IMG/VR virus record: IMGVR_UViG_2695420809_000013 | Source: a virus | Lineage: Duplodnaviria > Heunggongvirae > Uroviricota > Caudoviricetes | Reading direction: 5' to 3' (one strand) | DNA length: 5,005 bases | In this document: piece after piece, positions 1 through 5,005 of the stretch | Layout of the letters: the number at the start of each line of letters is the position of its first letter | Numbering within the stretch: the stretch's first letter is position 1 | Program-made: the position numbers and the translations under genes | The notes under the pieces: model-generated | The model's input: only the letters and a program-made list of their open reading frames with translations | What the model was told of the DNA's origin: nothing | The model's database searches: none

Positions 1-1074
1 TCATTTGTTGATTTCAATTTTGTCCCATTCTCTCCCTCGGCTGTCCCTATACCGCGCCGCCATTGAATCTGATTTATGCCCGAGAAGACGTTGAGCAAAC
101 TTATCGCCAATCTGATTCCGGTATAGCCTCGCCGACAGGCTACGCAGTTCATGGAATGTTGGCGGGTCTCCATCAAATGAGAGTCCAGATGCATTTCTCG
201 CCTTTGTAAAATACTTAGATACTGTTTTCGGGGAAAGCGGTTCGTGATGCGTTGATGCAATTATTGTTTCACTGCCGCTGACCTCCCTGCATTTCTGTAG
301 TGTATCGGCCAATGAGATATTGAGCGCGTCAATCGTTAGCGTCAGCGGAATGGCGAGCTTAGCCCCTGTTTTACCCTGTTCAATGTGAAGATGGTTGTCG
401 TTTATGTCTGACCATTTCATTTTGCACAAATCGCCGACTCTCTGACCTGTAACGACGGCCAAATCCATCGCAAGCCTCAGCCAGATTGGGAGAGGTTCGG
501 CTGCATGGTGAATCGCGACATACTCATTAGCTGTCAGCCTTGAGCGCCTTACTTCTGACTTTGCTGTGCGGGTTGCTGTTACCGGATTCGTAGCCACATG
601 CCCCTCGGCTATTGCCTCACGAAAAACGTCAACAAGGGTTGACCTGATTAATTTTGCGGAAGCCGCTTTACCTTCTGCTACGTAGGTGTTTAGCATTGCT
701 GCCACCTCTTTCGTTGATATGTCAGCGAGCGGTTTGTCCGGCAATTTTCTTCGGATTGCCCTGATTTTGCTGGCGTAGTCGAGTAGAGTTTTCGGCCTGA
801 TACCCCTCTCGCTGAGGATTGTTTCATATCGGTCAAGCCACGCATGAAGAGTGATTGCGTCAGCGCCTTTAATTCTGTCTATCAGTGACTCACGCCTGTT
901 CCCGGATAGCAACTCAATATTGGCCTGTATAGCTTCAGTGATTGCTATACGTCTGTCTCTGCCTAATCCGAACTCTTTACCCGTCCTTGGGTCCCTGTAG
1001 CAGTAATATCCATTGTTTCTTATATAAAGGTTAGGGGGTAAATCCCGGCGCTCATGACTTCGCCTTCTTCCCAT
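1..1074 (-). CDS. int: Lambda-family tyrosine integrase (site-specific recombinase Int), complete 357 aa
   Basis: Full-length ORF; N-terminus MGRRRSHERRDLPPNLYIRNNGYYCYRDPRTGKEFGLGRDRRIAITEA and C-terminal region HELRSLSARLY...LLGH...Y match phage lambda Int as I recall it (catalytic-domain R, H-x-x-R and Y motifs present). Start overlaps the end of xis, as in lambda. Stop codon is at window positions 3..1. Confidence 0.95.
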   Translation of the reverse strand: MGRRRSHERRDLPPNLYIRNNGYYCYRDPRTGKEFGLGRDRRIAITEAIQANIELLSGNRRESLIDRIKGADAITLHAWLDRYETILSERGIRPKTLLDYASKIRAIRRKLPDKPLADISTKEVAAMLNTYVAEGKAASAKLIRSTLVDVFREAIAEGHVATNPVTATRTAKSEVRRSRLTANEYVAIHHAAEPLPIWLRLAMDLAVVTGQRVGDLCKMKWSDINDNHLHIEQGKTGAKLAIPLTLTIDALNISLADTLQKCREVSGSETIIASTHHEPLSPKTVSKYFTKARNASGLSFDGDPPTFHELRSLSARLYRNQIGDKFAQRLLGHKSDSMAARYRDSRGREWDKIEINK

Positions 1075-1270
1075 TTTTGATCCTCTTCAAAAGGCTACCT
1101 GTTACTGGTCGATTTAAGTCAATTTTTACCGCTGATTCGTGGAACAAATACTCTCTTCCATCCTTAACAGGAGGAGGGAATATCCTGCACTCGCGTACCC
1201 ATCGACGAACTGTTTCAAGGCTTCTTGGGCGCCGCTGGCGTGCGTTCCACTCCTGAAGTGTCAAGTACAT
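1052..1270 (-). CDS. xis: Excisionase Xis (72 aa)
   Basis: Translation MYLTLQEWNARQRRPRSLETVRRWVRECRIFPPPVKDGREYLFHESAVK... is nearly identical to lambda Xis from memory. The 3' end overlaps the int start by 23 nt (lambda-like arrangement). GGAG lies 8 nt upstream of the ATG on the minus strand. Confidence 0.93.
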   Translation of the reverse strand: MYLTLQEWNARQRRPRSLETVRRWVRECRIFPPPVKDGREYLFHESAVKIDLNRPVTGSLLKRIKNGKKAKS

Positions 1271-1293
1271 CGCAAAGTCTCCGCAATTACACG

Positions 1294-1320
1294 CAAGAAA
1301 AAGCCGCCATCAGGCGGCTT
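1294..1320 (-). terminator. Candidate intrinsic terminator between the Cys-motif ORF and xis
   Basis: Perfect 8-bp inverted repeat AAGCCGCC/GGCGGCTT (1301-1308 and 1313-1320) with a 4-nt loop; on the minus strand it is followed by TTTTTCTT (plus 1294-1300). It sits about 40 nt downstream of the stop at 1361. Confidence 0.5.
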
Positions 1321-1360
1321 GGTGTTCTTTCAGTTCTTCAATTCGAATATTGGTTACGTC

Positions 1361-1672
1361 TTATTCGATGCGCACTCCTGGTATTTCGCCTTTTGATATT
1401 GCTAAGTCATAAATTTGCGCGGCACTATACCCATCTCGCATCCATGAATCTAAGGCGCGAACAGCCTCGCTACGCTTTTTATCTTCTCTCTCATTTTTGA
1501 TATCAACGAGGACATCAACGCAATTAAGGCAAATGTGGATTTTGTCCTTACATTCGATCATGGCGGCTTTGCCATGATTTCCGCCACACAGTGAGCATAA
1601 ATCTTCAGGGGCTGGCTGGTATTTCTGTAACGTTAGAGGGTTGAATGTTGAACAGGCCATAATCATCTCCAT
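1361..1672 (-). CDS. Hypothetical small Cys-motif protein (CxxC...CxxC, putative zinc ribbon), in the Ea8.5-equivalent position upstream of xis
   Basis: ORF of 103 aa with CSLCGG and CLNC motifs. The likely true start is the third in-frame ATG at 1660 (GGAG 6 nt upstream on the minus strand), giving 99 aa. Resemblance to lambda Ea8.5 is positional and motif-level only, not verified. Confidence 0.55.
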   Translation of the reverse strand: MEMIMACSTFNPLTLQKYQPAPEDLCSLCGGNHGKAAMIECKDKIHICLNCVDVLVDIKNEREDKKRSEAVRALDSWMRDGYSAAQIYDLAISKGEIPGVRIE

Positions 1673-1727
1673 AAAACAAAACTCGCCGTAGCGAGTTCAG
1701 ATAAAAGAAATCCCCGCGAGTGCGAGG
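1671..1727 (-). terminator. Two tandem hairpin plus U-tract elements directly upstream of the Cys-motif ORF start (terminator or attenuator-like)
   Basis: Minus-strand RNA would contain CCUCGC-ACUC-GCGGGG (plus 1712-1727, one G-U wobble) followed by AUUUCUUUUAU, then AACUCGC-UACG-GCGAGUU (plus 1680-1697) followed by UUUUGUUUUAU, which abuts the GGAG and ATG of the next ORF. Confidence 0.4.
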
Positions 1728-1856
1728 ATAGTTATTCATTGTCGATATTTACATTTATTTCGAATATCTTTACTGGGTAATCGCCAAAGTCATATGTTTT
1801 TTATTCTGTTTTATAAGCACTACCAAGTACTGCTTATTACAAATAAGAAAAGGCTG

Positions 1857-1885
1857 AAAAAATATTTAAGGCCACAACTGTGGCC
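1857..1885 (-). terminator. Candidate intrinsic terminator of the LprI-like moron gene
   Basis: Inverted repeat GGCCACA/TGTGGCC at 1870-1885, starting 11 nt after the TAA stop (1896-1898); on the minus strand it is followed by TTAAATATTTTTT (plus 1857-1869). Confidence 0.6.
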
Positions 1886-1895
1886 CTAAATTTAC

Positions 1896-2594
1896 TTACG
1901 GCACTGCGTTAATCAGATTACAAATACCTCTTTTGGCAGGGTCTGAATTCAACTTCTGAAAATTGGCGTTCAACATAGCCGTGTGTAAGTGATTCTCAAC
2001 CTCAAAGAATAAGTCGATTTTGCCCTCTTTGGCTGCCTGTTTCTTCCAAATATTCACTTGGTCATCAGCAATACGACTGGCGCAAGTGAACAAGAACGAA
2101 CTGCCTCTAGGAATGGATGTCGTGCTGTAATACTCACCATCTACTTCTACATATTTAGCTCGGAATGACTCTAAGGTTAGCTCATTGCCGTTCTTGACCG
2201 ACTTAGCTTCTGCCTTACTTGTTTCTTCCTGCTCTTCAGAATGTTTCTGCGCCGACGTGGGTATGTCATTGGCCGCTGTTACGCTGACTGAACTCCCCAA
2301 ACCTTTGAGGCCATTAATTTGGATAAGATAAGCCAGCTCCAGAGCCTTATTATCAGTGAGTTTTCCACGCATATTTACCCACTGACGTTGAACCATTTTT
2401 AGGGTGTCTGCGTTCTCTGGGTTTCCTTTGAGGGCACTAGAATAGGCAGAGCTAAGCTGTTCGTCTAATTTTGACAGACGTTCGTTATCGCAGATTTTAT
2501 GTTCGATTGCTGTCGAAGCCTTTTGGCAGTCAAAGCTGGCTGCAAATGCACCCGGCGATGCCACTAACAATGATGCCAGTAGGATATTTTTCAT
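1896..2594 (-). CDS. Secreted protein with an N-terminal LprI/DUF1311-like domain and an uncharacterised C-terminal domain (moron-like cargo gene)
   Basis: Start assigned to the second ATG (2594-2592) because GGAG lies 6 nt upstream on the minus strand; the ORF-track start at 2621 falls inside the putative promoter. Signal peptide MKNILLASLLVASPGAFA|AS with an AxA cleavage motif and no lipobox. Mature N-terminus CQKASTAIEHKICDNERLSKLDEQLSSAYSSAL...VQRQWVNMR fits the DUF1311 pattern (C..A....E..IC....L...D..L...Y......QR.W) from memory. Four Cys residues suggest periplasmic disulfides. The region is visibly more AT-rich than its flanks. Confidence 0.75.
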   Translation of the reverse strand: MKNILLASLLVASPGAFAASFDCQKASTAIEHKICDNERLSKLDEQLSSAYSSALKGNPENADTLKMVQRQWVNMRGKLTDNKALELAYLIQINGLKGLGSSVSVTAANDIPTSAQKHSEEQEETSKAEAKSVKNGNELTLESFRAKYVEVDGEYYSTTSIPRGSSFLFTCASRIADDQVNIWKKQAAKEGKIDLFFEVENHLHTAMLNANFQKLNSDPAKRGICNLINAVP

Positions 2595-2599
2595 ATTCA

Positions 2600-2672
2600 C
2601 TCCATAAATACAAAAGCGCATTACTATAGCACTTAACCGATCGCTTATCTCGCCCGTTCGTCATTCTTATCT
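2600..2672 (-). promoter_or_regulatory. Candidate sigma70 promoter (extended -10) for the LprI-like gene, with upstream direct repeats
   Basis: On the minus strand, TGcTATAGT (the -10 hexamer TATAGT corresponds to plus 2628-2623, with TG at 2631-2630) lies about 30 nt upstream of the ATG. The -35 is weak (GAGATA at a 17-nt spacer). A 7-bp direct repeat CTTATCT on the plus strand at 2644-2650 and 2666-2672 (AGATAAG on the minus strand) overlaps and lies upstream of the -35 region. Confidence 0.35.
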
Positions 2673-2724
2673 AACCAGAACATGCGACTGCCACAGCACA
2701 TGTCGAGGATTGCTGCATGTCCAG

Positions 2725-3162
2725 TCACTGGTTGCCTCCTTTGCGAAGCTGGGCGGCTAACTCATCACATATGTGCGTCAAAGAGCAAAGTTTGATTGAT
2801 GGGTGTTCGCGCATCATCTCAACCCCCTGCGCCCGCACTTCAGACAGGAAAGAGTCGGTGGCTGGGGTTTCAACACGGATGCTGTCGCGCAAGATGAAAA
2901 ATGCATTGAGCATTCCAGTCTCTGGCACTTCATCCTGATGCTTCTCATACTCATCAAGAGCCTTCATCATCTCTGCTCCGAATGGTTGAGGGTGCACAGA
3001 CTTCAGCTCCGCATTCTCCGCCGCCAGCGCCGCGCACTTGGCCTCCGCTTCAGCAAATTTGCGTACCAGATATTCAGCATTTGTTTCGTTAACCTTTAAA
3101 TCACATGGGATGCATTTACCTTTCAGAAATCCATCCATCTCAATTAGTGTCATTCGTTTCAT
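2725..3162 (-). CDS. Hypothetical protein (145 aa from the ATG at 3162; the ORF-track start at 3180 is a GTG)
   Basis: Long ORF in the same orientation as the operon. The ATG at 3162-3160 overlaps the TGA of the upstream small ORF (ATGA coupling) and has a GGAG/GGGAAG purine-rich stretch upstream. Contains a predicted coiled-coil-like stretch ([19 protein letters not shown]). No family assigned. Confidence 0.6.
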
Positions 3163-3323
3163 TTCTTCCCACTCCGCCACATCGCATTCAGATATTTGTT
3201 TTGATTCACTGACGGAGAAGAATTTCTCTTAAGCAATTCCTCTCTCGATGGCATTGGCTTTACGCGTTGGCGAATAATCATTTCTGCCGGAAGAATGCCG
3301 GGATTGTATGCAAGTCCTCTCAT
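3159..3323 (-). CDS. Hypothetical small protein (54 aa; start ambiguous, alternative ATG at 3341)
   Basis: The ATG at 3323 is preceded by GAGG with an 8-nt spacer, and the stop overlaps the next gene start in ATGA fashion, suggesting real translation. The longer 104-aa track ORF (start 3473) would overlap the preceding gene by about 140 nt in another frame and is less likely. Confidence 0.35.
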
Positions 3324-3333
3324 GGTAAATTCC

Positions 3334-3627
3334 TCAGTCATTACTGATAGCGCCATAGCGTGATCGATAATTACGCAGGCGCGGGTCAATTTCAGGGAAG
3401 TGGGTATATGTGGCTTTGCGGAATGGTCGGATTGATGTCTGGTAAATTCGCTCGCGTTCTTCTTTCTCTGCAAGCCATATACAATGGCGAAATTCCTTTT
3501 CCTCTTTCGTTTCCTGCGGTAGCGACATTATCCGATCGTAGTTTTTTCTGAATTTATCCAGCACCTCCGATACGGAATTGCCGGAACAGCGGCGCGGGTC
3601 ATCCGCACCATACAGAGGCGCTGGCAT
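3334..3627 (-). CDS. Hypothetical protein (97 aa)
   Basis: Strong SD AGGAG 6 nt upstream of the ATG (3627), 13 nt after the ssb stop. Charged protein rich in K/E/R; no family recognised by eye. Confidence 0.6.
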
Positions 3628-3640
3628 GATTTTCTCCTGA

Positions 3641-4147
3641 TTAAATTGCGTGAATAGCGTGACGAGGGAAGGGGAGAGTTACTGGTGCAAAGGGTATATC
3701 GTCGTCAAAATCCATCGGAGGTTCGTTGTGTTGTGCTGGTGATGATTGCTGCTGTGGCTTCTGTGATTGCCTGCTGGCTGCTTGTTGTTTGCTGTCGCCA
3801 ATGCCGCCAAGCATTTGCATCACGCCATTAATTCCGACATGAACCTCGGTTGTGTAACGGTCTTGCCCTGACTGGTCTTTCCACTTTCTGGTTCTCAGCA
3901 TTCCCTCGAAATAAATCTGATCACCTTTTTTCACATACTGCCCCACGACCTCAGCCAGTTTCCCGGATACAGCAACACGATGCCATTCAGTCAATTACTT
4001 TTGCTCGCCAGTATTTTTATCTCGCCATTGTTCTGACGTGGCTATTGTCAGGTTAGCGAACGCTGTTCCTGATGGTGAGTATCGAACTTCCGGGTCTTGT
4101 CCTACCCGACCAAGGATAATCACCTTATTTATCCCGCGAGAACTCAT
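3641..4147 (-). pseudogene. ssb: Single-stranded DNA-binding protein (SSB) gene interrupted by an in-frame TAA and carrying a 15-aa extension past the canonical DDDIPF C-terminus
   Basis: N-terminal part [50 protein letters not shown] (4147-3998) and C-terminal part [63 protein letters not shown]...[11 protein letters not shown] both align with E. coli SSB as remembered, in the same frame, separated by TAA at 3997-3995 where E. coli has Glu. The reading frame then continues past IPF as [15 protein letters not shown] before the stop at 3643-3641. The start has a GAGGTGGAG SD and overlaps the rusA stop (ATGA). Confidence 0.8.
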
Positions 4148-4527
4148 TTGCTCCACCTCTTGCCAGTTTTTATGTTGCTTATAATTGATTGAGATACACC
4201 CATGACCGGTCCCCACTCAACCAGCATTCTTTTCACCTGACTGTCGTCTTCCCACACACCCGCGTGGGTCAGGGCGTCAAACAGCGCCTTGTTATAGTTG
4301 TCCAGATCGCGGATCCGGTTATCCGGAGGAAACAACACAATCTCTACTGAAGCTGGTGCCGACGTTGGTTTCGGCAAACGACGTAACTGCTCAACTATTG
4401 CTGCGCACGCCGCGCTCTGGAATTTTCGCCCCGCCGCGCTTATCAGGCTCTTACCAGCAAACGCCCCTTTGTTGGGGTGTCGCCAGTACGTGTTCACGCT
4501 GGGCGGAAAAGGCAGAATCAGCTTCAT
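4144..4527 (-). CDS. rusA: RusA-family Holliday-junction resolvase (crossover junction endodeoxyribonuclease)
   Basis: [13 protein letters not shown] and [26 protein letters not shown] match E. coli RusA motifs ([39 protein letters not shown]) from memory, including the catalytic Asp residues. GAGAGGGG SD upstream; the ATG overlaps the stop of the upstream gene and the stop overlaps the ssb ATG. Confidence 0.8.
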
Positions 4528-4850
4528 ACTTTCAGGCCCCTCTCATGTAACCAGTGGGCTGCACGCAGCCTGCTGTTTTCCTCACCGGCAAGCAGTGCGC
4601 GGATAATCCCGACCGCCTCGCTGTCGTCGTCCTTCATCGCGGTATGAAGCGTTATCCCCCGGGCCACGCCACGCTTTATCGTGATGACGCCTTTTTTCTC
4701 CAGTGCTCGAAGATGCTCCACCGCTGCATTCACTGAACGGTATCCCAGCATGGTTGCCACCTCCTGATTGGTTGGCGGGAAGCCACGTTCTTTCTGGTAA
4801 GAAATCAGCATATCCAGCACCTGCTGCTGGCATTGAGTTAACGTCGTCAT
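4524..4850 (-). CDS. LexA-family DNA-binding-domain protein lacking the S24 autopeptidase domain (108 aa)
   Basis: LTQCQQQVLDMLISYQKERGFPPTNQEVATMLGYRSVNAAVEHLRALEKKGVITIKRGVARGITL parallels the E. coli LexA N-terminal winged-helix domain ([65 protein letters not shown]) as recalled. The C-terminal 35 aa have no Ala-Gly cleavage context and no Ser/Lys dyad domain. GGGAG SD; translationally coupled to flanking genes. Confidence 0.75.
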   Translation of the reverse strand: MTTLTQCQQQVLDMLISYQKERGFPPTNQEVATMLGYRSVNAAVEHLRALEKKGVITIKRGVARGITLHTAMKDDDSEAVGIIRALLAGEENSRLRAAHWLHERGLKV

Positions 4851-5005
4851 GCAGCCATCTCCCTGACCAGTTTTTCCGCCTGCTGGCGAACCTGCGCCAG
4901 AAAGGCCTCACCACATGCCTCAAGTTCATCGCGCCCGATGTAGCTGATTGCCGGTCCCTTCCAGGTCTTGTCGAAAACAGCAATAGCACCAGCGAAGAAA
5001 GCGCC
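4847..5005 (-). CDS. Hypothetical protein, 3' portion only (N-terminus lies beyond the window end)
   Basis: Open frame from the window edge, hand-translated as ...GAFFAGAIAVFDKTWKGPAISYIGRDELEACGEAFLAQVRQQAEKLVREMAA, ending in a TGA (4849-4847) that overlaps the ATG of the LexA-like gene. Absent from the ORF track because it has no in-window start. Confidence 0.5.
   Translation of the reverse strand, partial: GAFFAGAIAVFDKTWKGPAISYIGRDELEACGEAFLAQVRQQAEKLVREMAA

Follow-up and report, generated by a model that had tools for sequence, protein, structure and literature searches.

Recombination modules of lambdoid phages and the locus under study

The early-left recombination (Rec) modules of lambdoid phages are contiguous clusters of genes for a single-strand DNA-binding protein (SSB), a nuclease, an annealing protein and an anti-RecBCD function, as documented for 325 lambdoid phages (PMC12315714). 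The prototypes tabulated in that survey include the P22, HK620 and Gifsy-1 types, with ES18 as the example of an HNH nuclease gene packed in the module, and Holliday-junction resolvases are not listed among the other early-left DNA-transaction proteins of the 325 phages (PMC12315714). The module type shared by P22, ES18 and HK75 is described in PMC12315714 and PMC5928155, where the anti-RecBCD role of Abc2 is presented as the counterpart of that of lambda Gam. The DNA considered here is a 5,005-nucleotide stretch of a tailed virus (IMG/VR record IMGVR_UViG_2695420809_000013), called the window throughout, in which genes resembling rusA, ssb and lexA lie near the integrase gene int. An earlier note on this DNA had suggested that they belong to a different module which replaced that of lambda in the leftward operon. 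The comparisons reported below indicate that the cluster is very probably a deletion and rearrangement scar in a decayed Escherichia coli prophage, and not a new module.

Two unrelated blocks joined at 4204|4205

Window positions 3300-5005 were compared by BLAST with 50,697 phage records and 5426 closed E. coli genomes. Window 1-4204 can be assigned to a lambdoid prophage of the HK022/HK75 type, namely to the part of its early-left region next to int, the phage hits of the window being of HK022/HK75-type and not of lambda-type content. The stretch 3300-4204 is up to 99.9% identical to prophage regions carrying DUF2737-abc2-ssb-HNH and about 98% identical to phages HK75, mEp235 and mEpX2. Positions 4205-5005 read as a dam-lexA DBD-rusA fragment (DBD, DNA-binding domain) of the nin-region type seen in mEp460, SfV, SfII and Stx phages, here inverted, with about 97% identity to rusA-lexA DBD-dam of mEp460, SfII and many Stx phages. 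The two halves are adjacent in none of the 50,697 phage records and in none of the 5426 closed genomes, and no published description of this particular junction was found in the literature searched.

In the prophage of E. coli A25, the native order of the left block is int-xis-...-DUF2737-abc2-ssb-HNH-Rad52/Rad22 protein-kil-...-N-...-cI|cro, and the viable phage HK75 has abc2-ssb-recombination protein-kil-cIII-Nun-pL-cI. The rightward operon of mEp460 reads cro-...-replication protein-hypothetical gene-dam-lexA DBD-rusA-kilA-N-...-Q-lysis, all on the strand opposite to the repressor, and the lexA DBD-rusA-kilA-N block occurs in 2300 of the 5426 closed E. coli genomes. In the window, the right block shares the strand of int, i.e., it is inverted with respect to its usual orientation. 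The remark of the earlier note that rusA normally belongs to the nin region and is oddly placed here holds. Likewise, the Pfam scan, which covered ten open reading frames (ORFs) of the window and was complemented by PHROGs for family assignment, bears out that the RusA-, SSB- and LexA-like genes are co-oriented with int and near it, all on the minus strand.

The 1999-bp deletion and the missing recombinase

At 100% identity, the window matches the end of contig CYEN01000017.1 (GCA_001284385.1; locus L005); its right end is the contig end, so that the last ORF (4847-5005) is cut off. The same defective prophage is found at mdtA in the closed genome NZ_CP148378.1 of E. coli Z1323HEC0067 (locus L008, within which the L008 coordinates below are counted), which differs in one base and is 1999 bp longer, the additional bases lying exactly at 4204|4205. 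Window 1-4204 corresponds to L008 2215-6418 with one mismatch, and window 4205-5005 to L008 8418-9218 at 100%. The 1999 bp are annotated as the rest of the HNH gene, a Rad52/Rad22 protein, a hypothetical small ORF, kil and O'/DnaB' pseudogenes, the O and P/DnaB stubs being HK97-type. Pfam recognizes HNH (PF13392), a Rad52-family protein (PF04098, E=1e-25) and kil (PF06301) in this segment, and PHROGs assigns its annealing protein to the Erf-like ssDNA annealing proteins (E=2e-129). As both the long form and unrelated prophages have an intact HNH gene that runs on without a break to ssb, the window form is taken to be the derived one. The adjacency of rusA and ssb results from the deletion, which removed the bulk of HNH, the recombinase, kil and the O'/P' stubs. 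Fourteen contigs, some longer than 200 kb, encode the exact 127-aa chimeric RusA created at the joint; they belong to several NCBI assemblies and to one ENA metagenome. Regarding the origin of the deletion, neither direct-repeat slippage nor a palindrome-mediated event is supported, as no repeat linking its two ends was found.

The recombinase is absent from the cluster. A single-strand-annealing protein is lacking in the window and in the 10 kb upstream of it in the sister contig L003, and is present only in the undeleted L008; nor was a recombinase seen upstream of dam in the sister contigs, i.e., those carrying the same defective prophage. The truncated ORF at 4847-5005, for which a recombinase had been proposed, is the 3' end of a Dam methyltransferase gene, with 100% identity to the 217-aa gene of L003 and L008 and 51 of 52 amino acids identical to the Dam of mEp460. 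The full 217-aa gene matches PF05869 (E=1e-45), the 52-aa fragment alone having no Pfam match. A recombinase beyond the window had been the other proposal, but what lies there is PerC, the remnant of a replication gene and, divergently, a rusA-ninH-Q block, the recombinase having been removed with the 1999 bp. The upstream genes (Dam, PerC and a divergent nin region) are thus not recombination-related, which the earlier note had itself named as an outcome that would refute its proposal. The placement of the cluster in a leftward (pL) operon also fails, the pL operon being gone: N, pL, cI, cro, O and P are all absent in the sister contigs (L003/L008), L008 having O'/P' stubs only. On this gene content, regulated pL/N transcription of the cluster would have no supplier.

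The history that very probably accounts for this arrangement starts from an HK022/HK75-type phage with a P22/ES18-type early-left module comprising abc2, ssb, HNH, a Rad52/Erf annealing protein, kil, N, pL and cI. As the closed sister genome shows, its immunity and replication region was lost, leaving the O' and P' stubs, and a nin fragment of about 2 kb from an mEp460/SfV-type phage (rep'-perC-dam-lexA DBD-rusA') was then inserted in inverted orientation, which is why it reads on the int strand. The 1999-bp deletion would next have taken most of HNH, the annealing protein, the small ORF, kil and the O'/P' stubs, bringing rusA codon 108 in frame with the last 19 HNH codons, directly upstream of ssb. 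Finally, the strain of the window would have gained a GAA>TAA stop in ssb.

Gene content of the window

All substantial ORFs of the window are on the minus strand (Table 1), and several ea-type and unknown genes, including one for an LprI-like protein, are found in addition to those listed. No ORF covered by the Pfam scan matches the Exo, Bet/RecT or Gam families, in agreement with the earlier note, which had seen no Exo/Bet/Gam-type genes. Just outside the part considered there (3641-5005), abc2 was overlooked; as this anti-RecBCD gene is intact, a Gam-equivalent function is present. Judged by their sequence, int, xis, abc2 and the LexA-DBD gene are among the intact ORFs of the window, with dam and perC intact beyond it, and abc2 is the sole undamaged member of the recombination module.

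Table 1. Features of the 5,005-nucleotide window (minus, minus strand).
Feature	Position	Strand	Evidence or remark
Tyrosine integrase, HK022-type, 357 aa	1-1074	minus	In sister contigs, chromosomal mdtA is found outside the window at this end
xis excisionase, 72 aa	1052-1270	minus	PF07825, E=2e-40
DUF2737 small protein, 54 aa, usual abc2 neighbour	3159-3323	minus	Mapped from the L003 gene table; annotated in L001 and L008
abc2, P22-type anti-RecBCD, 97 aa, intact	3334-3627	minus	PF11043, E=6e-64, profile 1-97/97; phrog_656
ssb, interrupted	3641-4147	minus	PF00436 on both halves (3641-3994 and 3995-4147)
In-frame TAA in ssb	3995-3997	minus	GAA (Glu51) in all relatives examined
HNH endonuclease remnant, last 19 codons and stop	4144-4204	minus	Identity to L001 and L008 extends to here
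Deletion junction	4204-4205	.	Blunt join, no microhomology; L008 6419-8417 (1999 bp) absent
RusA-family ORF, 127 aa, chimeric	4144-4527	minus	PF05866, E=8e-14, profile 1-110/124
rusA', codons 1-108 of mEp460-type RusA	4205-4527	minus	PF05866; comparison with mEp460 RusA; 1Q8R alignment
LexA N-terminal DNA-binding-domain protein, stand-alone, 108 aa	4524-4850	minus	PF01726, E=3e-19; phrog_362
Dam N6-adenine methyltransferase 3' end, 52 codons	4847-5005	minus	Cut by the window and contig end

Damage to rusA and ssb and the LexA-like protein

The chimeric RusA is native only through Val108 (...VEWGPV), its last 19 codons being the in-frame C-terminus of HNH, the stop of which overlaps the ssb start (ATGA). 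The native protein is 129 aa long; about 21 C-terminal residues are gone from the window ORF, the native tail IPKGKVEITISKYEKTAGAAA being replaced by the 19-residue HNH-derived one. The fold signature PF05866 is recognized, while the polypeptide is incomplete by its C-terminal ~17-21 residues, and the alignment with the structure of E. coli RusA (1Q8R) covers only residues 6-103 of 120. The equivalents of Asp70, Asp72, Asp91 and Lys76 are kept in that alignment (rDlDn..K and wxDD), the roles of these residues in E. coli RusA numbering being known from PMC1636454. Lacking the C-terminal strand, the chimera is probably inactive.

In ssb, the TAA replacing GAA at codon 51 is the only difference from an intact gene in 1280 nt, and the single mismatch with both E. 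coli A25 and Z1323HEC0067. The gene is split into 51 and 117 codons, adding up to the length of the intact protein WP_000098523.1 (168 aa). An SSB of 168 aa is called in L003, L004, L006 and L007, and one of 117 aa in L005; as ssb is intact in these sister assemblies, the stop is either private to the source strain or a sequencing error. In this strain ssb is likely a pseudogene, and what is left of SSB would be 50 residues or a restart fragment. A widespread TAA polymorphism or a programmed stop was also considered and rejected, the many other contigs with a 117-aa product having GAA at this codon and being broken in other ways. At its other end (window 3641-3700), the phage SSB runs 15 residues past DDDIPF, an extension that is native, being present in WP_000098523.1 and HK75. 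In E. coli SSB the DDDIPF motif forms the extreme C-terminus, and its free carboxylate is needed for the binding of partner proteins.

Regarding the LexA-like gene, the protein is a full-length member of phrog_362 (positions 1-106/106), and its winged-helix domain aligns with LexA residues 2-86 (E=6e-16). No match to the S24 peptidase/dimerisation domain (PF00717) was obtained in the 108 aa, so the protein is not a LexA repressor. Around residues 80-90 (window 4581-4611), its linker '...LLAGE' is aligned with '...VAAGE' of LexA, the Ala84-Gly85 self-cleavage site, and the recognition helix RSVNAAVEHL differs from that of LexA at one acidic residue. The protein is very common (2300 of 5426 E. 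coli genomes), its function being apparently uncharacterised. The SOS box CTGT-N8-ACAG has no match across the 21.5-kb locus, giving no indication of LexA control.

The prophage beyond the window

As the sister contigs and the closed genome show, the window is the int-proximal end of a defective E. coli prophage of about 17 kb inserted next to mdtA. The wider order is mdtB-mdtA|int-xis-...-abc2-ssb-... on one strand, then PerC<-Dam<-lexA DBD<-rusA' and a rep/ydfO' stub, after which come a divergent nuclease'-rusA-ninH-Q-holin'-tail tip'-lom-tail fibre-nleG segment and, on the opposite strand, espJ. Two RusA genes are thus found head to head, namely the truncated mEp460-type copy (L008 8384-8740) and an intact 120-aa lambda/82-type copy (10655-11017) followed by ninH and Q; they have in common a stretch of only 36 nt, 75% complementary (inverted repeat I1). 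In the inverted block, a gene for a PerC-family activator adjoins dam (L008 9713-10207). PerC homologues regulate the locus of enterocyte effacement in attaching-effacing strains. The type III secretion effector genes nleG and espJ are in the same remnant (L008 17342-19475), for which reason the host is probably an attaching-effacing E. coli.

Alternative explanations

Two other accounts of the junction can be weighed against the scar. That RusA, SSB, a LexA-like regulator and an upstream recombinase form a functional alternative module, having replaced exo-bet-gam in a lambdoid leftward operon, would be in keeping with tightly overlapping ORFs all co-oriented with int, with the retained catalytic residues of RusA and with the frequency of SSB-containing non-lambda Rec modules in lambdoid phages. 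However, rusA has lost its 3' end and runs into an HNH remnant, and ssb is interrupted by a stop codon. Upstream come Dam, PerC and then a divergent nin region, the real recombinase lies within the 1999 bp missing here, pL, N and cI are absent, and the arrangement is in none of the phage records or closed genomes searched; such a module is highly improbable. What does stand of the proposed replacement is that the backbone carries a non-lambda module (Abc2-SSB-HNH-Rad52/Erf), to which neither rusA nor the LexA-like gene nor the upstream ORF belongs. An assembly chimera of two prophages in one genome might be suspected from the window stopping at a contig end, from the blunt junction between two repeat-like prophage segments, and from a 24-nt probe over 4204|4205 with no match in three representative collections (genomes, metagenomes and viral contigs). 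As these collections are limited to one genome per species or lack E. coli isolates of the lineage, the probe is uninformative, and both flanks are collinear with the closed genome save for a clean 1999-bp gap. Together with the presence of the exact chimeric protein on 14 independent contigs, this excludes an assembly chimera for practical purposes.

A third proposal, compatible with decay, is that the inverted nin fragment has been kept by the host for Dam, the PerC activator or the LexA-DBD protein, the rusA'::HNH' fusion being a tolerated by-product. The ORFs of dam, perC and the LexA-DBD protein are indeed intact and 100% identical across carriers, their neighbours being fragments, and the remnant has the effector genes nleG and espJ. 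Yet the carriers differ by about one single-nucleotide polymorphism in 16.7 kb, so that this conservation is uninformative on selection; there is neither a promoter signal above chance nor an SOS box. Domestication of this kind is rather unlikely.

For the scar itself, a few observations weigh in the opposite direction. The direction of the last event, a deletion, is inferred and not observed. With all its catalytic residues, the chimeric RusA could keep some activity, and the stop in ssb could be a sequencing error, as it comes from one draft contig that is listed for two samples. The scan of L008 5500-11200 for promoters and terminators gave fewer sites than were found in shuffles; being uninformative, it does not allow a transcription model to be built. 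Lastly, the right end of the deletion falls within 0-2 nt of an older P'|rusA' junction (L008 8413-8420), a coincidence expected of a random deletion in about 1 case in 1000.

The scar nevertheless calls for caution in reading such loci: co-oriented, tightly packed recombination and repair genes beside an integrase can be what decay has left and not a module. The telltale is damage at the joints, here the truncated rusA, the HNH stub and the stop in ssb. The locus documents stepwise prophage decay at mdtA in an effector-carrying (nleG, espJ) E. coli lineage.

Recurrent deletion end-points

In the long form L008, rusA' already ends at codon 108, where it is joined to the HK97-type P/DnaB stub via a 2-nt TA microhomology, so that rusA' ends at the same codon in both forms with different tails. 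This older junction created the 8-nt palindrome GGTTAACC, and no longer repeat or palindrome that would account for the coincident break-points was found. In the HNH gene, a perfect 15-nt direct repeat, CTTTTGCTATCTTGT, is present at L008 6420-6434 and 6540-6554, with a spacing of 120 nt; its first copy begins 1 nt into the stretch that was deleted, beside the left end-point. Further partners at the rusA break-point were sought in closed genomes, and none was seen in a 60-row sample of 2309 records.

Considering ssb, a look-up of the 117-aa SSB fragment indicates that the gene is broken by other lesions in many other prophages. Its 5' truncations in unrelated defective prophages are found at only two positions, nt 44 and nt 93/94 (loci L010-L026 and L138), where chance end-points would scatter over about 126 nt. 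At nt 93/94 (window ~4055) there are four unrelated partners, one of them being ninG'|ssb' in the closed genome NZ_CP122923.1, and at nt 44 (window ~4104) there are three. TA or TAA microhomology is seen in all three joints with a checkable partner (ninG' and a helicase). Among the IMG/VR contigs carrying this ssb, a truncated form was found in 0 of 111. It can be tentatively hypothesized, though it seems doubtful, that the cores of lambdoid prophages are repeatedly deleted from one side because of a break at a specific site, decay then being directed and not random. The source of the break could be a topoisomerase site or the homing-type HNH endonuclease, whose gene adjoins ssb in some 17% of alleles; alternatively, the recurrent end-points may reflect descent with re-deletion. 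If borne out on a large scale, the fixed end-points would suggest that the domestication of prophages involves a specific mechanism of breakage.

Comparison with known systems

The backbone module is of a known and common type, since such Rec modules are described in the survey of lambdoid phages (PMC12315714). The order of abc2 and ssb and their placement with respect to int-xis and DUF2737 are those of the P22/ES18/HK75 type, and the two genes have 98-99.9% identity to those of HK75, mEp235 and many E. coli prophages. The gene order had been thought unusual; this is true of rusA, whose position next to the module is anomalous, but abc2-ssb-annealing protein beside int is common (HK75; PMC12315714). 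Unlike in the P22/ES18/HK75 module, only abc2 is intact here: ssb, though contiguous with it, has a stop at codon 51, HNH is down to 19 codons, and the annealing protein has been deleted along with kil, N and pL. In contrast to HK75 and A25, there is no early-left operon with pL and N or Nun (L003, L008).

The right block has the order perC-like-dam-lexA DBD-rusA of the nin block of SfV, SfII, mEp460 and Stx phages, at ~97% nucleotide identity, from which it differs in being inverted with respect to int, Q and the lysis genes, in being followed by ssb and not by kilA-N, and in being truncated on either side (at rep' and at rusA codon 108). With lambda Red, the locus shares the early-left map position between the ea genes and kil/cIII/N, and Abc2 has the anti-RecBCD role of Gam (PMC12315714). 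Homologues of Exo, Bet and Gam are, however, absent, and the native annealing protein is of the Rad52/Erf type.

Among defective lambdoid prophages, similar cases are DLP12, which has a cryptic rusA, and the prophage remnants with effector genes in enteropathogenic and enterohaemorrhagic E. coli. As in these, immunity, replication and most late genes have been lost, int/xis and the cargo (nleG, espJ and lom) have been kept, and pseudogene fragments are present; the locus is unlike them in having two copies of rusA head to head, one of which is a fusion ORF.

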